Source: a virus (lineage: Duplodnaviria > Caudoviricetes). From it: 54,185 nt of DNA. The translations under genes were made by a program, and so were the position numbers. The stretch spans positions 1-54,185 of the IMG/VR virus record IMGVR_UViG_3300017651_000176. The stretch is one strand, 5' to 3'. Position 1 is the first letter of the stretch. The number at the start of each line of letters is the position of its first letter. Shown piece by piece: positions 2,619 to 36,749 of this stretch. Under the pieces are notes generated by a model. The model was not told where the DNA came from, did no database searches, and saw nothing but the letters and a program-made list of their open reading frames with translations.

Positions 2619-4136
2619 TCATCCGTATACGGCGCCGCCGTCGGTGTGGGAGTTTCCGGTTTCCGGATCGGCTGGAACTGGCGCCGGGCAAGGGTTGCCG
2701 GCCGATGATGGCGAAGAAATTGCCGGTTTGTCTGCCGGTTGCGCGGACAGACCGGCGTACCCGTCGTTGACTGGGCAACCCTTGCTGCCACAAGACGAGA
2801 TCACCTTCAGTTCGCAGGCCCGGCATTCCACCTCGGGCAAGTTTCTGGCGTGTTCCAGGTTGCAGTCGCGCACCGCCTCGCTGGCCTGGGGCGCGGCACA
2901 AAGCGCCATAACAGCCGCGACCCCATCGCGCATGCGGTAGGTCTGATGGCACGCGGAGCGCTCGAAAGCCTCCACTGCTGCATCCAGCGTCACAGCGCTG
3001 ACCTGGGGCGCGGCAAGCAGCGCCGCTATGAGGTCTCCGGCTGGCGTGTCGCTGTGCGCGACCCAATCCCCTCCAGTCGGCGGCGTGATGCGGTAGCCGT
3101 GCCCGTCCACCACCTTGACGCGGTAGCCTGTAGGCATGCGCACCTCCCCGGCTACAGGGCCTAGGGCGCCGCCCTTAGATTCAGTGCTGGCGCGGCTTTC
3201 CGGCCGATTCGGGACCGATTGGGCGCCATCGTCCCAGGCCACTACCGGGCCGCCCAAGTGATCGCCGGGGACTCGCGTTTTCCCATCCCCGGCTACAGGG
3301 GCGCTTGCCGGGGTATACCCGTCCACGCCGTGAGTGCCGATGATGGCAAGCATGTGCCGGCCTTTAGGCAGCGCGGCCAATTGCTCGTCGGTGAGGTCGG
3401 TGCCCACGTCCATATAGCCGCCCGCGCCCAGGTCGAGATACGCCACGGCCTGCCGCCCATCCGTTACAGCGGACGCGTCCAGGAACGGAGCCTTGTAGCC
3501 CGCGCCGCGTAGCAGGTTTTGCACCTGCACGGGTATGGCGCGGAACTGATGCGCGCAGCTCGGGCAGATTACGGCGGTATTGTCCGGCCGTACACCGTTG
3601 GCGCGGTCGCATTCGTCGTTTGCGCACAGCACGCCATCAGCTTTGGCCGCTTGGCACACGTCGGTCTGGCATGCCTGGGACACTACAGGGGCGCTTGCCA
3701 GGGCGGCGCGGGCAGCTTCCCACGCGGCAGGTAGCGCCTTGTGATAGTAGTCATAGTCGGTCCCGTGCCCGCTCTCATGAAGGGCGCGCAAGCGCAGCCG
3801 CATATCCTCCAGGTGCACCAGCTTTTGCAGCGCCGCCCGCTCATCGGCTACAGGGGCGCGCACCTGAGACATGATGCAGGCGCGCCAGCCGTTGGTGAAG
3901 TGGGTCAGGTCGCTGGCGCAGGCCGGATTGTCGGCGTCGGCGCCGTAGGTCAGTTCGAAGCCTTCGCGGATATCAGATACCGGGGCGCGCAGCTGGTACA
4001 GGAGGGCGGATTCGAGCAGCGCCTGGATATGGTCGCGCCGGGGGTCGACGCCAGGCTCCATACTCACTGCCTGTGCGAAGCCAAGATAGGTCAAGATTTG
4101 GGCGGCCGCCTGGGCCGCGGTGGTGTGGTCGGTCAT
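2619..4136 (-). CDS. Modular mosaic phage protein with repeated ASAPVA/AAPQAS linkers
   Basis: 505-aa ORF; linker peptides and matching DNA repeats separate unrelated segments. Confidence 0.75.
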   Translation of the reverse strand: MTDHTTAAQAAAQILTYLGFAQAVSMEPGVDPRRDHIQALLESALLYQLRAPVSDIREGFELTYGADADNPACASDLTHFTNGWRACIMSQVRAPVADERAALQKLVHLEDMRLRLRALHESGHGTDYDYYHKALPAAWEAARAALASAPVVSQACQTDVCQAAKADGVLCANDECDRANGVRPDNTAVICPSCAHQFRAIPVQVQNLLRGAGYKAPFLDASAVTDGRQAVAYLDLGAGGYMDVGTDLTDEQLAALPKGRHMLAIIGTHGVDGYTPASAPVAGDGKTRVPGDHLGGPVVAWDDGAQSVPNRPESRASTESKGGALGPVAGEVRMPTGYRVKVVDGHGYRITPPTGGDWVAHSDTPAGDLIAALLAAPQVSAVTLDAAVEAFERSACHQTYRMRDGVAAVMALCAAPQASEAVRDCNLEHARNLPEVECRACELKVISSCGSKGCPVNDGYAGLSAQPADKPAISSPSSAGNPCPAPVPADPETGNSHTDGGAVYG

Positions 4137-4194: not shown

Positions 4195-4806
4195 ATGCTT
4201 CAGGTGTTTTGGTTGGCAGGCGCGGCATTCGCAGGCGTGATGGGAGGGGTCATCATTACGTCGGTCGATGCAGATGCGAAGTGGTGGGAAGCGTTTTCGG
4301 CTATCGGAGCAATCATTGCCGCGGTGGGCACAGTTGGAACACTCGCCTATCAGGCGGTGCAGAGCGCGCGAGTCCAAGCACTGCTAAGAACTCAAGCCAT
4401 GCAGCAAGAATTCGTTGAAGCAGAGCAGCTGGAGCAGTGGATCCGCGACCTCGTGTACGTGTCTCGCGATATGTACCGAATCATTAGGAGCCCAGATACC
4501 CACTCTCTGTCGGACGCCATTGCTGCACGAGAGAAGTTTGAGCGAACACACGAGGGGTTCAAAAATGGAAAGGTTCGGATTTCCTCCAAGATGGGGCAGA
4601 AGCTCGCATCTCTGATAGACGGCTCCTACCGGTTCGGGCTGGAGCTAGCGAGTTCGTTGGCGGGGCGTCCGTTTTTCGAGCGCGAGGAGAAGTTCTTCTC
4701 GGGCCTATCGGGCCTGTACGATGAATGGAGCAATAAACTCTTGGAAATTGAGTTGCCCCTGGACGCTTGGCGGCGCGAGTTGGAGTCTAGGATTGCGAAC
4801 GAATAG
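4195..4806 (+). CDS. Moron-like membrane protein (inverted orientation)
   Basis: Two N-terminal hydrophobic helices then helical soluble region; lower GC; opposite strand to neighbours. Confidence 0.7.
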   Translation: MLQVFWLAGAAFAGVMGGVIITSVDADAKWWEAFSAIGAIIAAVGTVGTLAYQAVQSARVQALLRTQAMQQEFVEAEQLEQWIRDLVYVSRDMYRIIRSPDTHSLSDAIAAREKFERTHEGFKNGKVRISSKMGQKLASLIDGSYRFGLELASSLAGRPFFEREEKFFSGLSGLYDEWSNKLLEIELPLDAWRRELESRIANE

Positions 4807-7402: not shown

Positions 7403-7966
7403 ATGAGCTTGTGGGTGGATTTGCAGACGGTCGGCGCGGCGTGGGCTTCCGCGGTGGCGACCGCCGCCGCTACCGGCACGGCCTTATGGTTAGCGCTGTC
7501 CGAACGTCGGCAGCGACTAATCGAGAGGGACCGCGCAGTAAAACTGATCGCTTCTGGTGTTGCTGTCTATCTGGAGGAGATACGTCTCGAGTTGATAACG
7601 GCTCTCGCCTCGATCGAGAAAGGCCTTAGCATGGGGAATCCCGCGCTGCTCGCGGAATTCTTGAGCACGGTTGCCGATCATGTGAGGACGCTCAACACCG
7701 CGGTGTTGGCGGGGCAAGAGCTCAATGTGCTTGCGGCGCTGCCAGAGAATGCCGGCGAGAAGATCTACACAGCACTTTCATGCATACGATCAGTACAGGA
7801 TGGCCTTTCCCGCCGTCTGGATATCGTTACTGGCGGAAATCCGGAGGCTGGCGTGATGGTCGAGCATTGGAGGAACCAGTTGAGTTGGGCGCGTGGACTT
7901 GTAGAAGAGGGCCAAGCGGTATGTGCTCGGTACGGAACTCTTCGTGTCGTTCAGATCAAGGGATAG
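7403..7966 (+). CDS. Moron-like membrane-anchored protein (inverted orientation)
   Basis: N-terminal TM WASAVATAAATGTALWLA then helical domain; RBS GGGGAG before ATG 7403. Confidence 0.7.
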   Translation: MSLWVDLQTVGAAWASAVATAAATGTALWLALSERRQRLIERDRAVKLIASGVAVYLEEIRLELITALASIEKGLSMGNPALLAEFLSTVADHVRTLNTAVLAGQELNVLAALPENAGEKIYTALSCIRSVQDGLSRRLDIVTGGNPEAGVMVEHWRNQLSWARGLVEEGQAVCARYGTLRVVQIKG

Positions 7967-14426: not shown

Positions 14427-14687
14427 ATGGGTTCTCTGTAGTTGGCTTCGGTAAGCGCCGCACGCGGCGCTGGCCGAAACCCGCTTTTCAGCGGAATCGG
14501 TTGCCGGCATTCCAACCGGCGTGACCGTTTCTGTTCTTGGCCGTCTGCGCCTCACCCTGTTGACCGTGAACCGCGCTTTGGCGGACTGGATACGGTAGGG
14601 ACACCGCGCAGAGCTGCGGCCATGCCCGCAGTTGCGATTGAGCCGGACGAACACCCCACAGGCGGGGTGAGCAACATCGGCGGCAGA

Positions 14688-14699
14688 TTGTTAAGGAGC
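14688..14699 (-). promoter_or_regulatory. boxA-like antitermination element (nutL-like)
   Basis: GCTCCTTAACAA on minus strand, 1 mismatch to boxA GCTCTTTAACAA, about 120 nt downstream of OL. Confidence 0.6.
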
Positions 14700-14822
14700 T
14701 GTTCTCGCCTTCCCCAGTCCGACTTAGTGGCGGTGACGTCTCCCGCTTGAGGCGATGCCCTGACTGCTGACTGCGGGTCCGTGGGGGTGTTTCTGGCGCC
14801 GCGTTTGCAGCGTTGAATGAAT

Positions 14823-14865
14823 AATAACCATGGTTATTTAATGAGTCAATAACTATGGTTATTGA
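14823..14865 (-). promoter_or_regulatory. OL operators and pL promoter
   Basis: Palindromes AATAACCATGGTTATT (14823-14838) and AATAACTATGGTTATT (14848-14863) matching OR; minus-strand TTGACT -35 with TATTAT/TATTCA-like -10. Confidence 0.85.
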
Positions 14866-14938
14866 TTGGGCAGGGCGGAACGCGAGGCAGCTTTCGGCTA
14901 CTATCGAAGAATCGTTTTGTTACAAAAGGGAAAGAAAA

Positions 14939-15676
14939 ATGCGGATTCTTACGGGCGGGCTATTAGCTTTGTCGCTATTGGGATGTAAACCCGCAGTGCA
15001 GGGGGATGCGAACAAAGAGCCGCCCCGCAGTCCTGTAGCATCAGCTTCAGAGGGGGCTAGCGCGCCGGCGTCCGCTGTTCCTAAGCCGGCGCAGCCCGGA
15101 GCGGCGCCTTCCTCTGACGCGAAAGGCATCGACCCGGCCGAAATTGTCGAATGCGCTCGTGAGGTGAGCACGGTCATTCGGCTTGCGTGCTACGACGCAC
15201 TTGCCGTGTCGGAAGGTCTTGCGCCGAGAGCCGAAACCGTCGAGAGACCAGCGGTTGGTGCCTGGCGCGTTCGCAAAGACGTTGATCCGCTCACTGACAA
15301 CCCGATCTACTTCGCGACGCTGTTTGCAGATACAGGAAAGGGTAGGTATGGAGGCCCAATCACCCTGACGGTCCGTTGCAAGAACAGTCTTACTGAACTG
15401 TATGTGGGCTGGGGCTCCTACTTGGGAAGCGACGATACGGAAGTCGTTTACCGAATAGACAAGGAAAAGCCGATTCGAGCCGACTGGTCGAATTCGACCG
15501 ACAACAAAGCAACTTTTTTCCCGGGGTCTCCAGTGGCAACATTGAAGAGATTAGTTGACAGCACGTCGTTTGTTGCTAGCGTGACTCCGTACAATGAAAA
15601 CCCTATAACGGCAACGTTTAATACTTCGGGCGCGAAGGAAGCGCTAGCAGACTTGCGTAGTGGCTGCGGTTGGTAG
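14939..15676 (+). CDS. Lipoprotein, VasI/TagO-like (T6SS-associated family)
   Basis: Lipobox LLGC, Pro/Ala linker, CAREVSTVIRLACYDAL, W...DPLTD and terminal CGW pattern. Confidence 0.65.
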   Translation: MRILTGGLLALSLLGCKPAVQGDANKEPPRSPVASASEGASAPASAVPKPAQPGAAPSSDAKGIDPAEIVECAREVSTVIRLACYDALAVSEGLAPRAETVERPAVGAWRVRKDVDPLTDNPIYFATLFADTGKGRYGGPITLTVRCKNSLTELYVGWGSYLGSDDTEVVYRIDKEKPIRADWSNSTDNKATFFPGSPVATLKRLVDSTSFVASVTPYNENPITATFNTSGAKEALADLRSGCGW

Positions 15677-15741
15677 TGCGCCGATTGAGCCAGTAGGTGA
15701 GCCTACCTGTCGATTCTTTCGTGAACGCTGTATTGACGCAA

Positions 15742-15763
15742 CAAAGCCACCCGAAGGTGGCTT
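15742..15763. terminator. Hairpin, possibly bidirectional terminator
   Basis: AAGCCACC-CGAA-GGTGGCTT between convergent genes. Confidence 0.6.
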
Positions 15764-15768
15764 GGGTC

Positions 15769-15834
15769 TTAGTAGGCTGGCTGTGCCCAGAGGGCCAGTG
15801 CCAGCACTGCCACCCAGATCATGATTCGCATCAT
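15769..15834 (-). CDS. 21-aa hydrophobic peptide, Ibs-like type I toxin candidate
   Basis: MMRIMIWVAVLALALWAQPAY with AGGAG 6 nt upstream; same MM[KR]...AY frame as E. coli Ibs peptides. Confidence 0.6.
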   Translation of the reverse strand: MMRIMIWVAVLALALWAQPAY

Positions 15835-16004
15835 GACTGGCTCCTTCTGCCTAGGAACCATCTCCTAGTAAAGGAGAAGTCATGATCAATTGCAGATAAT
15901 TGGGCCGAGCAACGAGAGAGCCACTTGAAGGGACTGCTCCTAGGGCTGGGTCAGTATCCAGCTTTTGGGGTGGTCAGTTCAGGAGGTGATTTGCTGTTAG
16001 CAGG

Positions 16005-16409
16005 TCAATGACTGGATTCTTCAATATCCCACCCGCCCCACCCCCATGCCGAAAGCTTGAGATGGACGAAAACAGGCTTGGCTCCGACCTCGAGACCTAG
16101 TTCTGAGGTGGGCCGCGATTCACCATTACGGCTGACACCGACTAGGCGACGGCCCTCCGGCAAGAAGACTTGGAGGACTTCTCCGTCACCTATAGTCCCA
16201 ATCCGCTTGCCGTCCACATAGATGCCCAGCCGATAGGCATGGAGCGGCCAGCTATCTCTTTTTATCGTGACTGAGCCTCGATCAGCGGCAGGTTCCAGCA
16301 AACTCTGATCCAGAACTTCAGCGTTTGCGGTTTTACGGCCGGTGCTTGCGTCGGGCACAGAGGCGCACGCGGTGAGTAGGGAAGCTAAGACGAGTGCGGC
16401 AATCCGCAT
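16005..16409 (-). CDS. Lipoprotein
   Basis: Lipobox LLTAC; beta-rich body IYVDGKRIGTI; RBS GAGG. Confidence 0.8.
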   Translation of the reverse strand: MRIAALVLASLLTACASVPDASTGRKTANAEVLDQSLLEPAADRGSVTIKRDSWPLHAYRLGIYVDGKRIGTIGDGEVLQVFLPEGRRLVGVSRNGESRPTSELGLEVGAKPVFVHLKLSAWGWGGWDIEESSH

Positions 16410-16494
16410 TGAGCAACCTCTTCAAAGAATAATTTTGTCATTGCAGGAGCAGATTGCCGATTGTAAGCCAGGGCAAATCCGTGTGCGGCGAAAC

Positions 16495-16516
16495 AAAAAA
16501 GCCACCCGGAGGTGGC
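16495..16516 (-). terminator. Rho-independent terminator for the leftward cI-CapRel transcript
   Basis: GCCACC-CGGA-GGTGGC preceded by A6 (U-tract on minus strand). Confidence 0.7.
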
Positions 16517-16610
16517 GTTATTATGCGGGCGGCTTAGTAGGCCGCCGCACCCATTGCCCAAGACTCTCTGTATACTTTACGAACCGCATTCTAGAACTTT
16601 GGAGACCAGC

Positions 16611-17051
16611 ATGAGTTGGCTTGGCAAAGAGCGGGAAGCAGAGGTTTTTGTCGAACGCCTGATTTGGCCGACAGGGCCACGATGCCCCTTTTGTTCGTCG
16701 GCGCGCTCCACCGTGTTGCAACGAGCGGATGGCAAGGTACAGCTCTATAAATGCCGAGATTGCAGAAGGAATTACACGGTCAGGCGGGGGACCGTGTTCG
16801 ACCACACTCATCTCCAGCTATCGCAATGGCTCGAGGCCATGCGGGTTCTAGCTGAAAGTCCGAGCGTATCTGCGGCTGATCTGGCACAGCGAATTGGCGT
16901 TTCTCGAAGGACCGCCTATCGAGTCCTATCGTCGTTGCGTGAGGTGATAGGGAACGTCAGTAACGCGCCTCAATCGGAGGCGCACTTAAGTTTCGACGAT
17001 GTCGCCTCCGCCATCAGGGCGTCATGGCAGGCTTGGTTTGTTGAGGAATGA
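16611..17051 (+). CDS. IS1595-type Zn-ribbon plus HTH protein lacking a DDE domain
   Basis: WPTGPRCPFC...YKCRDCRRNYTVRRGTVFDHTHL..SAADLAQRIGVSRRTAYRVL; RBS GGAG; ends at 146 aa. Confidence 0.75.
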   Translation: MSWLGKEREAEVFVERLIWPTGPRCPFCSSARSTVLQRADGKVQLYKCRDCRRNYTVRRGTVFDHTHLQLSQWLEAMRVLAESPSVSAADLAQRIGVSRRTAYRVLSSLREVIGNVSNAPQSEAHLSFDDVASAIRASWQAWFVEE

Positions 17052-18111
17052 TTGGGTCAGGTATTTCTCCGGCAACCACTTTGTCGACCAAACTGGCAAA
17101 GGCATTGGTATCCATGAAGTAGTTCGGGTAGGCCCGACGCAGCGCGTTGATGTTGTCCACAGACACCAAGACCACTTGCCGAGTCGAGCCCTCTGGGATC
17201 AAGCTTTCGAGTTCCGTGTACTTTGCGTTTGCCTGTTCGGAGTGTTTGGCCTTGTAGCGCCAGACAGTAATTCTTGGAGTAGGGGTGGTGCTAGGCTCGA
17301 GCTCAAGCAAAAAGTACTTTGCGTCTTTCGAGTCTCCGACGATTTGGAGGCTGGTGTTATAGACCATCAGCATCTCTTTCACCCGCAGCTCCGTTACCAA
17401 TCCGGCGATCTCCCTGACGAGAGATTTTTTATTGGTAGGTGTGCCGGGAACAGCAGGGGACTTTTCTATTGAAGCAATGGCGGAACCCATTAGGGAAAAA
17501 AACCTCAGCCATTTTTCATCTCCCTGGTTGGATTTCAAGGCCTGTTTAGTAAAAATACCGACAGCTTCGACAGCCGTAGCCCAGGCATGTTGCAATTGTG
17601 TCCTTATCTGCACCTCCACCTTCATCCCGTTATATACAGTGGTGGCCTTTGCTCCGATGTACTCGAAGACTAGATGTACGCATCGATAGCCGTCGGTTTT
17701 CGGGTTAAGGATGTAGTCCTTCTTGCCGCGTAGCTTGTGAGCAAACTTGTTGTTCGTGTACTGATCAACAAGTCGGCGGACACTGACCATTTTTTTTAAA
17801 ATGGCTCGGCAGCCAGCGATATCCTGCATCTGGCTCATGCGCATAGTGGGATGCCTAGACAGCTTGGCGTGGACGGACTCCAAGCGCTTCGTGCGTTGTG
17901 CCACGACAACGTCCCGTTCTAGTTTTCTGGCCTTATTACGCAGGGTAATTTGGAAGGTATTCAGCGGGTACGCATGGGAAGAGCGCCAATTGTTCAATAC
18001 CGTTAGCGCCAACAACCCTTCGTCGTCAACGACCGGAAATTCCAGATGCGCCAACATTCGGCCAGCTCGATTGAGGGATTCGGTGTCATGCTGAGGAATT
18101 GCCCAATCCAT
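17014..18111 (-). CDS. capRel: Fused CapRel-type toxic small alarmone synthetase (toxSAS), anti-phage defence
   Basis: RelA/SpoT synthetase motifs QRTKR...QDIAGCR...DY...GYRCVH...EVQIRTQLQHAWATAVE plus C-terminal LRRAYPNYF (YxxY) autoinhibitory signature; low GC; downstream of cI. Confidence 0.85.
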   Translation of the reverse strand: MDWAIPQHDTESLNRAGRMLAHLEFPVVDDEGLLALTVLNNWRSSHAYPLNTFQITLRNKARKLERDVVVAQRTKRLESVHAKLSRHPTMRMSQMQDIAGCRAILKKMVSVRRLVDQYTNNKFAHKLRGKKDYILNPKTDGYRCVHLVFEYIGAKATTVYNGMKVEVQIRTQLQHAWATAVEAVGIFTKQALKSNQGDEKWLRFFSLMGSAIASIEKSPAVPGTPTNKKSLVREIAGLVTELRVKEMLMVYNTSLQIVGDSKDAKYFLLELEPSTTPTPRITVWRYKAKHSEQANAKYTELESLIPEGSTRQVVLVSVDNINALRRAYPNYFMDTNAFASLVDKVVAGEIPDPIIPQQTKPAMTP

Positions 18112-18202
18112 CTTCTCAGTTTCCAGTAATATTAATTATCGATCTCATTATTGGTTTAGCGATAGCTGCCTTCGCGATCTCTTGAATTAATATTAGGCAG
18201 CT

Positions 18203-19270
18203 TCAGCCCCGCACCCACTGCCCCGCCTCATCATCGCGCAGCCTGGCGCCCGCCCATACGACCTGGCCTAGCACGCGGACAGGGTGGCCGTTCTCCAGCG
18301 GGATATCGGGATAGGTCGGGTTGAACGAACGAGCCACCCAGCGCTTCGTCAGACGATCACGGGTTACGGTCTTCACGATCATCTTGCCGTCATAGTTGAT
18401 GGCATAGACTCCGCCGGCGGCGATGTCTCGTAGCGTCAAGGTTTCGTTCGGGACGACAAGGAGGGCGGCGCCATCGCGGATGACGGGTTCCATGCTGTCG
18501 CCTTTCGCATACACAACGCGGGCCTTGCCGTTGTCCGCGCCTACGGCCTTAAGGAACGAGCGGCGGAACTGAATCATCCCCGTCTGCTCTTCGGCGTGGT
18601 TTTCGATCGGATCGCCGGCTGCCAAGCGCACGTCCGCCAGTTCGGGCACCTTCTCGAATCTGTCGTTGGCGGCAGGCGGCTCGCCCACTCCGACATTTGC
18701 GATCACACCTGTCTGCGTGCTGATACGGACCTTGCGGTCCCGCTCCGCTTGGAATGTGGTCGCGCCGCTTTCCCAGGGGGCAGGCGGCAAGCCTTCGATG
18801 CGCATGGGGAACGGATCATCCGCGGCATCCAAGTCTACGAGCGAGCCCGGGGCGTTCGGCGAGTTCGCAGGGGGCGGAGGCTTCGAAACCGTGATGCCGA
18901 GTTTCATTTGAGCGATCGCCAATGCGATCGCCCCTTCCAATGCGTTCAGCTTCTCCGGGGGCAGGGCTCGGATGGAGGCTTCAGATATCGACGCGAAGGG
19001 CCATTTCTGGGGCGGCGTATCGCGCTCCTGGACGGGGGGCGTTGCGCTGGCGCTGTCGGTTGAGTTTTCGTTGTGACCCGTTTCCAGAAAAGTCAGCGAA
19101 ACACCCAGGGCCTCGGCCAACAATCTGCCGTGACGAGTATTGCCCCCGCCCTCAATTTTCTTGATAGCGACTTGCGAAATCCCCACCCGACGGGCGAGCT
19201 CAGCCTGCGAGATCTGTAGCTGCTCGCGGCGCTCCTTAACCCGAGACGCAAAAGTGGAGGGGGAATTCAT
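18203..19270 (-). CDS. cI: CI repressor (HTH plus S24 peptidase)
   Basis: ISQAELARRVGISQVAIKKIE HTH; LAAG cleavage site; GDSMEP Ser; IVKTV Lys. Confidence 0.93.
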   Translation of the reverse strand: MNSPSTFASRVKERREQLQISQAELARRVGISQVAIKKIEGGGNTRHGRLLAEALGVSLTFLETGHNENSTDSASATPPVQERDTPPQKWPFASISEASIRALPPEKLNALEGAIALAIAQMKLGITVSKPPPPANSPNAPGSLVDLDAADDPFPMRIEGLPPAPWESGATTFQAERDRKVRISTQTGVIANVGVGEPPAANDRFEKVPELADVRLAAGDPIENHAEEQTGMIQFRRSFLKAVGADNGKARVVYAKGDSMEPVIRDGAALLVVPNETLTLRDIAAGGVYAINYDGKMIVKTVTRDRLTKRWVARSFNPTYPDIPLENGHPVRVLGQVVWAGARLRDDEAGQWVRG

Positions 19271-19281
19271 GGCGGCATCCT

Positions 19282-19348
19282 ATAACCGTGGTTGTTATGG
19301 GTCAAAGAACCATGGTTATTGACGTATCAATAACCATGGTTATAAGAT
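19282..19348. promoter_or_regulatory. OR operators (three) with pR
   Basis: ATAACCGTGGTTGT (19282), AGAACCATGGTTAT (19306), ATAACCATGGTTAT (19330) at 24-bp period; TTGACG -35 at 19319 and TATAAG/TAAGAT -10. Confidence 0.88.
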
Positions 19349-19356
19349 GGCGTCCT

Positions 19357-19620
19357 ATGCATACCCAGAACCCATCTCGCCCCGCAATCGAAAAGGCTAT
19401 CCGCTTGGCGGGGTCTCAGGCCGCGCTCGGCCGACTAGTCGGGAAGAAGCAACCTCACATCCACAAATGGTTGAACAGCAAGAACGCACTGAAGGCCGAT
19501 CACTGCGTCCTTCTTGAAGACCGGATAGGGGTTACACGCCAAGAACTCCGGCCGCTGGACTATTGGGTCGTCTGGCCAGAGCTTCAACGTCCCCAGGTCG
19601 AGGAGTCCTCCCATGCGTAG
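19357..19620 (+). CDS. cro: Cro/YdaS-family repressor
   Basis: AIEKAIRLAGSQAALGRLVG...GVTRQELRP; divergent from cI. Confidence 0.88.
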   Translation: MHTQNPSRPAIEKAIRLAGSQAALGRLVGKKQPHIHKWLNSKNALKADHCVLLEDRIGVTRQELRPLDYWVVWPELQRPQVEESSHA

Positions 19621-20499: not shown

Positions 20500-20943
20500 A
20501 TGAACACCCAAGACGCCGCGTACCACACAGTCCACGACTACACCGGCGGTAGCGAATCCCTGGCCCCGCGTATCGGGATGTCGGCGGCCGTGCTGCGCAA
20601 CAAGGTGAACCCCAACAACGAAACGCACCACCTTACCTTTGCCGAGGCGCAGCGCATTGTCGCGATGACCGGCGACGCGAGGATGTTGCGGGCCTGGGCG
20701 CATCAAGAAGGCTTTCTGCTTCTCAAGGCCCCGGCAGGGCGCGGCGAGACCGACATGTCCGTCCTGGAGAGCGTGGTCGAAACGGGCATGGCGCACGGCC
20801 ATTTCATGCAGTCCATCTATGCGGCATTGGCTGACGGAAAGGTGGATAACGGCGAGGTCCGGGAAATTCGCCAGGCCGAGCGCACGCTGCAAACCGCCGC
20901 GGCCACCGTGACGATGCGCATGGCGGGGATGGCCGAGGAATGA
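20500..20943 (+). CDS. cII: Phage regulatory CII family protein
   Basis: AAYHTVHDYTGGSESLAPRIGMSAAVLRNKVNPNNETHHLT...ALADGKVD. Confidence 0.85.
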   Translation: MNTQDAAYHTVHDYTGGSESLAPRIGMSAAVLRNKVNPNNETHHLTFAEAQRIVAMTGDARMLRAWAHQEGFLLLKAPAGRGETDMSVLESVVETGMAHGHFMQSIYAALADGKVDNGEVREIRQAERTLQTAAATVTMRMAGMAEE

Positions 20944-35320: not shown

Positions 35321-35671
35321 ATGCCCTTCATCCATCAACAGGCCCGGACGGCCGATTTCATCCTCTCCGAAGCTAACGGCCAACGCTCGCGCGAAAACGC
35401 GCTGCTCGCCGCCACCCTCGTCACGCTGGCCGCGGGCCAACTCCTCACGCTGGGGGGCGACGGCAAGTATGTCGTTTACTCCGGGCCGGGGGCAGACCCC
35501 GACGCACCGATCACCGCCGACGCCGTGCTGTACAGCAATGTCCCCGCGTCCGACGCGGATCAGCAAATCGTCGTCATCGCGCGTGACGCGGAGCTGGCCG
35601 GCGAACTTCTCGTCGGCGTGGACGCGCCCGCGCGCGTAGCCCTGGGGGCGGCCGGCATCATCGTTCGCTGA
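35321..35671 (+). CDS. Head decoration protein
   Basis: FILSEANGQRSRE; position before capsid. Confidence 0.85.
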   Translation: MPFIHQQARTADFILSEANGQRSRENALLAATLVTLAAGQLLTLGGDGKYVVYSGPGADPDAPITADAVLYSNVPASDADQQIVVIARDAELAGELLVGVDAPARVALGAAGIIVR

Positions 35672-35747: not shown

Positions 35748-36749
35748 ATGGCCGATATCAATATCTTTCAAGACGAGAAATTCACGGTTTCCGCCTTGAC
35801 CGCCGCCATCAACGAGCAGCAGAGCATCCCGGGCCGCATCGGCAAGCTGGGCCTTTACTCGGAAGAGGGCGTTTCGTCCACCGTCGTGCAAATCGAATAC
35901 GACGGTCAGAAGCTGGGTCTGATCCCGGCCAAGCCCCGTGGCGGCGTCGGCGAATCCGTCATTCTGGCTGGCCGCAAGATGATTCCGTTCAACACCGTGC
36001 ACTTGCCGGCACGTTCCACGATGCTGGCGGACGAGATCCAGGGCATCCGCGCGTTCGGGAGCCAATCGGAGCTGGAATCGGCCGAAGCGCGGGTCGCCAA
36101 GTACCAGAAGAAGCACCGCCAACAACTGGACCTGACGCACGAGTACCAGCGCGTCGGCGCCATCAAGGGGCTGATCCTGGATGCGGACGGCACTTCGGTG
36201 CTGCTGGACGTCTATCAGTCGTTCGGGATCGTGCAGCAGGAATTCGCCATGGACCTGACGAATGCCGGCACCATCGTTCGCCAGAAGTCGGACGATGTCG
36301 TGGACCTGATCGAGGATGAGCTGGGGGCGACGCCGACCAGCGGCGTTCGCGCGCTGTGCGGCAAGAACTTCTGGAAGACGCTGATCAACCACAAGAGCGT
36401 GCGCGAGACCTACCTGAATACCGCGCAGGCGGCCGAACTGCGGGGCAAGCCGGCCGACTCCTTCGAGATCGGCGGCATCACCTACGAACGCTACCGCGGC
36501 AAACTGGGTGGCAACCCCTTCATCGGCGACGAGGTGGCCTACGCCTTTCCCGATGGTGTGCCCGACTTCTTCATCACCCGTTTCGCGCCGGCCGACTATA
36601 TGGAAACCGTCAATACCGACGGCCTGCCGTACTACACGCGGGTCGAGCCGCTGAAGTTCGGCAAGGGGCTCGAGATCGAAAGCCAGTCGAACCCGCTGCA
36701 CCTGCCGACGCGCCCCAAAGCCATCATCAAACTGAAGATGGGTGCCTAA
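35748..36749 (+). CDS. Major capsid protein (gpE family)
   Basis: FTVSALTAAIN...FAPADYMETVNT...QSNPL. Confidence 0.93.
   Translation: MADINIFQDEKFTVSALTAAINEQQSIPGRIGKLGLYSEEGVSSTVVQIEYDGQKLGLIPAKPRGGVGESVILAGRKMIPFNTVHLPARSTMLADEIQGIRAFGSQSELESAEARVAKYQKKHRQQLDLTHEYQRVGAIKGLILDADGTSVLLDVYQSFGIVQQEFAMDLTNAGTIVRQKSDDVVDLIEDELGATPTSGVRALCGKNFWKTLINHKSVRETYLNTAQAAELRGKPADSFEIGGITYERYRGKLGGNPFIGDEVAYAFPDGVPDFFITRFAPADYMETVNTDGLPYYTRVEPLKFGKGLEIESQSNPLHLPTRPKAIIKLKMGA

Follow-up and report, generated by a model that had tools for sequence, protein, structure and literature searches.

Anti-phage defence by fused CapRel proteins has been demonstrated for CapRel-SJ46 as well as for CapRel-Ebc and CapRel-Kp (PMC9712102). 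In the sections of the reports drawn on here, a toxic N-terminal domain, pyrophosphorylation of tRNA 3′ ends, defence that depends on the G-loop tyrosine and activation by phage proteins are documented for these three proteins only (PMC9712102, PMC11578894). The C-terminal region of fused CapRels is variable and sets phage specificity (PMC9712102), and CapRel-SJ46 itself senses two unrelated proteins (PMC11578894). In bipartite toxSAS systems the antitoxin is a pseudo-zinc-finger domain (pseudo-ZFD), of which a YXXY 3-10 helix blocks the ATP donor site (PMC11782079); one such pair, PhRel/ATphRel of mycobacteriophage Phrann, is also a prophage defence (PMC9712102). Here we describe a further fused CapRel-type toxSAS, the product of a gene (capRel) in the IMG/VR provirus record IMGVR_UViG_3300017651_000176, whose 54,185 nucleotides (positions 1 to 54,185) are referred to as the window. 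A sequence-only reading of the window had proposed a fused CapRel toxSAS that is probably co-transcribed with the repressor gene cI; what it gave as established for CapRel-SJ46 agrees with the corresponding sections of PMC9712102, PMC11782079 and PMC11578894. Sequence, profile, fold and motif conservation all bore out the first part of this proposal, and the assignment of the product as a fused CapRel-type toxSAS with catalytic site and YXXY switch intact is strongly supported by alignment and predicted model. The protein extends a known defence family by a well-supported, divergent member and does not represent a new type of system.

Toxin and antitoxin parts lie in one 365-residue open reading frame (ORF), and the N-terminus agrees with the consensus of 59 aligned homologues from residue 1 onwards. 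The protein is matched over its full length by the PADLOC candidate defence model PDC-S33 (2.1e-121, residues 1–346), and over residues 5–345 by PHROG 4773 (phrog_4773; 4e-97). Both are computational groupings, the latter labelled ‘unknown function’, and a literature search found no paper mentioning PDC-S33. A phmmer search of all PDB sequences yielded 7ZTB and 9ERV as best matches (E 5e-40, residues 34–343), entries titled ‘Salmonella tRNA pyrophosphokinase CapRel’ and ‘CapRel bound to Bas11 Gp54’, respectively. BLASTP alignment to CapRel of Salmonella phage SJ46, a comparison that the sequence-only reading had suggested, gave an E-value of 3e-49 at 30% identity, covering nearly the whole length (residues 35–346 against 39–370). 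With a profile built from the 59 homologues, CapRel (7ZTB/9ERV) was found in the PDB at 6.8e-76 over residues 6–343; RelQ and RelP came next at 1e-23, over the synthetase core only, and the similarity to FaRel2 was marginal (0.03). The E-values for the family assignment are far beyond chance. The AlphaFold2 (AF2) model of the protein (pLDDT 90.9, pTM 0.89) had the CapRel chains of 7ztb and 9erv as its top Foldseek matches over the full length (E ~1e-22, TM score 0.65–0.71), followed by small alarmone synthetase enzymes (RelP/RelQ) that matched the N-terminal half only.

Residue roles were taken from PMC9712102, as stated in its relevant sections, and transferred via the BLASTP alignment. In CapRel-SJ46, R79 and R116 coordinate the ATP adenine, Y155 belongs to the G-loop, Y352 and Y355 form the YXXY switch, and A77, V338, L339, A341 and A351 make up the switch scaffold (PMC9712102). 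The corresponding residues in the window protein are R73 and R102 for adenine coordination, Y142 in the G-loop, Y328 and Y331 in the switch, and A71, V314, L315, S317 and A327 in the scaffold; CapRel-SJ46 and the window protein share the arginines of the ATP site, the tyrosine of the G-loop and most residues of the interface. R73, R102, G141, Y142, E166, Q168, R170, Q174, H175 and A327–F332 are invariant in the 59 aligned homologues. The last of these stretches, the AYPNYF singled out by the sequence-only reading (residues 327–332, window 17116–17133), matches AYPNYF of CapRel-SJ46 letter for letter. Its observation of complete synthetase motifs also holds: besides the RelA_SpoT match, the blocks that we take to be these motifs (R73/K75/K83, D97..R102, G141-Y142-R143..H146, E166-x-Q168-x-R170 and Q174-H175-x-W177) show no or almost no variation across the same homologues.

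The C-terminal part of the AF2 model comprises, with high confidence, strands 266–272 and 280–286, helix 288–303 and strand 312–317, and after this last strand helices 321–327, 329–332 (short, over P329–F332) and 336–346. This secondary structure has the topology described for CapRel-SJ46's pseudo-ZFD, and residues 256–320 contain no cysteine. Despite the TM scores given above, the root-mean-square deviation of the model from the open crystal form is ~10 Å; together with the short helix over P329–F332, this deviation is compatible with a closed state, in which YPNY would be docked on R73 and R102. The architecture is that of CapRel-SJ46 as well as of CapRel-Ebc and CapRel-Kp, namely a single ORF of ~365–373 residues with an N-terminal toxSYNTH domain, a C-terminal pseudo-ZFD and a YXXY switch. 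The same toxSYNTH chemistry would be expected as in PhRel/ATphRel and FaRel2/ATfaRel2, which, unlike the single chain encoded here, consist of separate proteins acting in trans.

Homology, fold, conserved catalytic and switch residues, together with the cassette structure and purifying selection described below, are direct observations; with them in hand, we regard it as probable that a lambdoid prophage carries this single-polypeptide CapRel-type toxSAS as a superinfection-defence gene. Toxicity, autoinhibition, the tRNA target and defence would follow by homology to CapRel-SJ46. In the lysogen, CapRel would be made and held closed: its C-terminal pseudo-ZFD would dock on the synthetase domain at the N-terminus, and its YPNY turn (Y328, Y331) would block the ATP site by inserting between R73 and R102. 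Binding of a protein of an incoming phage to the variable C-terminal domain would open the enzyme, which would then move pyrophosphate from ATP to tRNA 3′ ends, so that translation would stop and the infection would be aborted.

The putative sensor differs markedly from that of CapRel-SJ46. Measured as identity to the query protein and by windowed entropies, the pseudo-ZFD is the least conserved part of CapRel, whereas the switch region stays conserved. Mean identities among 42 close relatives are 56% for the pseudo-ZFD, 70% for the synthetase domain and 71% for the switch region; among 16 distant relatives they are 23% for the pseudo-ZFD and 43% for the synthetase domain. A sensor that is the most variable part is a trait shared with CapRel-SJ46, as is carriage by a prophage. 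In the BLASTP alignment with CapRel-SJ46, the sensor lacks 8 residues at one place and 6 at another, and has 6 extra residues at a third. Because the sensor loops differ in this way, the trigger need not be a capsid protein. The sequence-only reading had placed the resident capsid gene correctly, at a position that matches a major head protein of the lambda gpE type. A second provirus, L033, encodes a CapRel that is 98% identical to that of the window beside a gpE-type capsid that is only 42% identical to the resident one, a combination that fits a sensor not tuned to the resident capsid without proving it. When the resident capsid was used as query, no gpE-type capsid was found in three other CapRel-bearing proviruses. 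A complex prediction for CapRel with the resident capsid, run without controls, scored 0.00 and is evidence neither way.

Several points weigh against this transfer of function from CapRel-SJ46. The sole characterised relatives, the CapRel-SJ46 group, are only 30% identical in sequence, the scaffold residue A341 is changed to S317, and L280 and L307, which CapRel-SJ46 needs to sense the SECPhi27 capsid (PMC9712102), fall in alignment gaps, their positions being removed by the sensor indels. With these two positions in gaps, the trigger and sensing mode of CapRel-SJ46 are not transferable to the protein described here. Two other functions may be considered. The enzyme could be a toxSAS directed at nucleotides, or else a common small alarmone synthetase, with (pp)pApp or (p)ppGpp as its product in place of modified tRNA: its synthetase core is common to RelQ and RelP, it gives weak, sub-threshold NCBIfam matches to the YjbM model (GTPPhKinYjbM, 50.4 bits against a cut-off of 320) and likewise to RelA/SpoT models, and its substrate is not readable from the sequence by the tools used. 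We hold this to be improbable, as full-length similarity favours CapRel over RelQ/RelP by more than 50 orders of magnitude, and a pseudo-ZFD with a YXXY that blocks the ATP donor site is, in the relevant sections of PMC11782079, the neutralisation mode of tRNA-targeting toxSAS, whereas Tis1-like domains neutralise (pp)pApp makers. A housekeeping small alarmone synthetase of the RelQ/RelP or YjbM kind was rejected on the score below the curated cut-off and on the extra C-terminal domain of ~150 residues. Still less credible is that the gene is a selfish toxin-antitoxin relic of the addiction type, which would give stability to prophage or cassette but no phage defence. Such a relic would be in keeping with a fused toxin-antitoxin on a mobile cassette and with a clade for which no defence phenotype is known and the PDC-S33 literature search came back empty; a single fused polypeptide, however, has no separate antitoxin that could decay differentially, defence has been shown for three fused CapRels (PMC9712102), purifying selection with a faster-evolving sensor fits a sensing role, and some relatives lie in restriction-modification (R-M) contexts.

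Next to the assignment itself, the comparison with L033 revealed that capRel travels in a ~1.75-kb unit that is common to the window and to a provirus with an unrelated cI. Besides capRel itself, this cassette holds the cI 3′ tail and the leader, a gene for a protein with a zinc ribbon (Zn-ribbon) and a helix-turn-helix (HTH) domain that is convergent with capRel and overlaps it, and a terminator; the sequence-only reading missed this two-gene arrangement. The repressor of L033 is an unrelated HTH_3+S24 protein of 256 residues. On the left, the junction falls within the window cI, 54 nt from its 3′ end (18203–18256 being the part of cI that belongs to the cassette), and the same 54 nt form a non-coding scar after the cI stop of L033 (L033:5855–5908), with 47 of 54 positions identical; upstream of the scar, similarity to L033 is random. 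The scar marks a recombination junction at the 3′ end of cI. On the right, the junction follows closely on the hairpin and T-run at 16516–16491. A 34.8-kb contig of run X6 likewise holds 16496–18249 only and differs on both sides; it may belong to the L033 lineage and is therefore not counted as independent. Between the window and L033, capRel shows 6 nonsynonymous and 22 synonymous differences (ratio 0.08) and the Zn-ribbon-HTH gene 3 and 11 (pN/pS 0.09), values that indicate purifying selection on both.

The convergent Zn-ribbon-HTH gene, which CapRel-SJ46 lacks as a companion, overlaps the capRel 3′ end with its last 38 nt. If the capRel transcript ends at the 16516–16491 terminator, this gene would be antisense within the capRel 3′ untranslated region. 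Its homologues form three clusters only (81–94% identity, 146 residues), one of them named by its source ‘transposase [Achromobacter denitrificans]’, and in the Atlas the protein falls among a broad class of stand-alone IS1595-type Zn-ribbon proteins of ~130–150 residues. As to co-occurrence with CapRel beyond the cassette, a viral scan gave the L033 record only, a metagenome scan gave none, and L034, a provirus whose CapRel is 71% identical, has no Zn-ribbon-HTH neighbour. A speculative and unlikely proposal is that the cassette acts as a two-part unit: the lysogen would make CapRel as the distal gene of the cI transcript, with a ~500-nt 3′ end antisense to the Zn-ribbon-HTH gene, and the Zn-ribbon-HTH protein, or transcription of its gene into capRel, would lower CapRel expression upon prophage induction. 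If true, this would be the means by which the resident phage spares its own lytic cycle. The consulted sections of the literature describe no regulatory partner of this sort for fused CapRel systems.

Relatives of the protein are numerous and their surroundings diverse. At E<=1e-10, 4526 proteins match CapRel; outside its own 99% cluster the nearest are 71% identical, one 71% cluster being assigned by its source to Bordetella bronchiseptica. Occurrence is patchy, with a match (E<=1e-30) in 11 of 401 sampled genomes of one bacterial order. Gene contexts vary widely across proviruses, genome loci and metagenome loci, and no conserved partner gene was found among the relatives examined, as expected for a one-gene system. 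The metagenome set comprised 33 loci: 36 of 71 had been picked by match length and upstream flank, and L159, L168 and L174 were dropped as apparent duplicates. In six of the 33 (L166, L167, L171, L173, L186 and L165), the gene belongs to a subclade of distant relatives (~36% identical) and immediately follows a methylase or specificity gene of a type I R-M system, which sets it within a defence locus. In a metagenome-assembled genome of Burkholderiaceae (L007:2921–6068), an HK97-type Phage_capsid gene is followed, two genes further downstream and in the same orientation, by a homologue with 42% identity.

In phage lambda, a defence gene comes immediately after the repressor, in the same orientation, in the cI-rexA-rexB operon of the immunity region. 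The layout at capRel is similar: capRel follows the repressor directly on the same strand, no terminator separates the two, and the unit ends in a terminator. Neither the protein nor its mechanism is related to those of rexAB. The position claimed by the sequence-only reading, 91 bp downstream of cI on the same strand, was reproduced by the ORF list and by the HTH_3, Peptidase_S24 and phrog_4 matches of cI (gap 18112–18202, both genes on the minus strand). We infer the transcript structure of capRel from this layout. The gene would move between prophages in the cassette placed directly after cI, and its expression would be simplest by read-through from the cI maintenance promoter, as for lambda cI-rexAB; we favour such read-through slightly over even chances. 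Between cI and capRel, neither the window nor L033 has a terminator-like or promoter-like site that reaches the threshold of the consensus scan, and co-transcription is plausible on that account. The sole terminator-like hairpin with an uninterrupted T6 on the minus strand of the scanned stretch is found where the cassette ends, ~500 nt beyond the stop codon of capRel, and L033 has the same cI-capRel-terminator layout. That the cassette was exchanged together with the cI 3′ tail also weighs for co-transcription, as do the promoter-like site directly before cI, a leader whose fold does not exceed that of shuffles, and the S24 repressors found upstream in the same orientation in L033, L034 and L035. 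A contig record of run X5 spans 17235–18227; it reaches 25 letters beyond the cI stop and is not counted as bridging the two genes. The -10 element of the promoter-like site upstream of cI ends 7 nt before the cI ATG, which suggests a near-leaderless cI mRNA.

The same protein could instead be expressed from a promoter of its own in the AT-rich leader that the cassette brings along, the position after cI then being a permissive insertion or recombination hot spot and not an operon. We regard this as a serious contender, somewhat short of even chances, and a cassette promoter may also coexist with read-through. Relatives behave as autonomous units in unrelated contexts, and in several respects they and the leader speak against dependence on cI. 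A Peptidase_S24-type repressor lies upstream on the same strand in three of eight distinct provirus arrangements (L033, L034 and L035; in a further one it is convergent), in none of 10 genome loci, where 42 of 52 listed ORFs were scanned with small ones omitted, and in none of the 33 metagenome loci; on these counts cI adjacency was rejected as a family trait. L137 has a strong, 15-pair terminator 74 nt upstream of its capRel homologue, which suggests that the family normally brings its own promoter, and by eye a hairpin with a T-run also lies upstream in L035 and L038. The leader, which travels with the cassette as does the cI tail, has 37% G+C within a 62% G+C phage and could hold a non-consensus promoter; by eye it contains TCGCTA and GATAAT at a spacing of 17 nt, matching the consensus at 8/12, just under the scan threshold. 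Set against a separate promoter are the lack of a site at that threshold in the leader of either provirus and the lack of any terminator isolating capRel from cI. The leader is identical to that of L033 at 82 of 91 positions (9 mismatches and 1 indel), about the synonymous rate (pS 0.09–0.10); it thus shows no sign of constraint, which argues neither for nor against a small promoter. Its RNA fold is not better than that of shuffles (z +0.74). An 11-nt inverted repeat and an 8-bp stem in the leader (18112–18202) were rejected as functional elements: both are altered in L033, and the first arm is broken in the X6 contig, where 5 nt are inserted at 18193. Upstream of two homologues with 66% and 64% identity (L137:2420–2495 and L139:2330–2407, respectively) we observed a common motif of ~30 nt followed by a -10-like element, which may be an own promoter or an operator. 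Co-transcription with cI, the second part of the sequence-only reading, is thus plausible from the uninterrupted interval and the cI tail in the cassette, and is tempered by the AT-rich leader and the autonomy of the relatives.

By its Pfam and PHROG matches, the window is the provirus of a lambdoid siphovirus, in whose immunity region capRel lies; CapRel-SJ46, by contrast, is carried by a P1-like phage. In addition to the genes listed below, an Ant-like protein, the large terminase, portal, protease, gpD-type decoration protein (35321–35671), tape measure and J-type tail fibre were recognised. The cI-like repressor is long, with ~150 residues separating its HTH (11–62) from its S24 domain (215–338). 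The G+C content drops from ~0.63 to 0.47–0.57 across 14650–18250, which places capRel in a moron-like island. The remainder of this island (14650–16409), outside the shared cassette, holds genes for a VasI-domain protein (14855–15676; PF11319, phrog_1848) and a lipoprotein (16005–16409; phrog_890). At the left end, the large ORFs 834–1982, 2619–4136 and 4195–4806 matched no Pfam family, and the first two, which were scanned against PHROG, matched none of its groups. No integrase was recognised among the window ORFs scanned. ORF 1–639, for an HTH+cupin regulator, may belong to the host.

Features of the capRel locus and its phage setting (window coordinates)
Feature	Position	Strand	Basis and remarks
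Fused CapRel-type toxSAS gene	17014..18111	(-)	ORF with ATG start, 365 aa; coordinates include the stop codon
RelA/SpoT synthetase core, residues 72-183	17563..17898	(-)	Pfam PF04607, E 1e-17; holds R73, R102, Y142, E166
Predicted pseudo-zinc-finger sensor/antitoxin core, residues 266-317	17161..17316	(-)	AF2; strand-strand-helix-strand, without Cys
YXXY switch, Y328-P-N-Y331	17119..17130	(-)	Invariant in 59 sequences; aligned to SJ46 Y352/Y355
AT-rich leader, 91 nt	18112..18202	(-)	From cI stop to capRel start; 37% G+C
Mobile cassette, ~1.75 kb	16495..18256	.	blastn to second provirus L033, 95.7% over 1763 bp; flanks unrelated
Intrinsic-terminator-like hairpin + T-run (T6)	16491..16516	(-)	Consensus scan; kept in L033 at 7596-7611
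Zn-ribbon (IS1595-type) + HTH gene	16611..17051	(+)	Pfam Zn_ribbon_IS1595 1.9e-11, HTH_11 1e-7; 146 aa
cI-like repressor	18203..19270	(-)	HTH_3 + Peptidase_S24 (Pfam), phrog_4 ‘transcriptional repressor’; 355 aa
Promoter-like site	19277..19305	(-)	TTGACC, 17 nt, TAGGAT, 9/12; consensus match only; candidate cI maintenance promoter
cro/YdaS-like gene	19288-19620	(+)	Pfam/PHROG matches
cII-like gene	20500-20943		Pfam/PHROG matches
Resident major capsid, lambda gpE type	35748..36749	(+)	Pfam Phage_cap_E 9.2e-99, phrog_29 major head protein

These findings leave the current understanding of CapRel unchanged. They add a confidently assigned, divergent fused CapRel from a large uncharacterised clade, with thousands of homologues across Proteobacteria and beyond that are annotated only as ‘RelA/SpoT domain protein’. 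With its sensor remodelled relative to CapRel-SJ46, the protein is a reasonable place to look for a new trigger. The cassette, through its cI-tail scar, shared terminator and companion gene, shows single-gene defences being swapped between lambdoid prophages at the immunity region.

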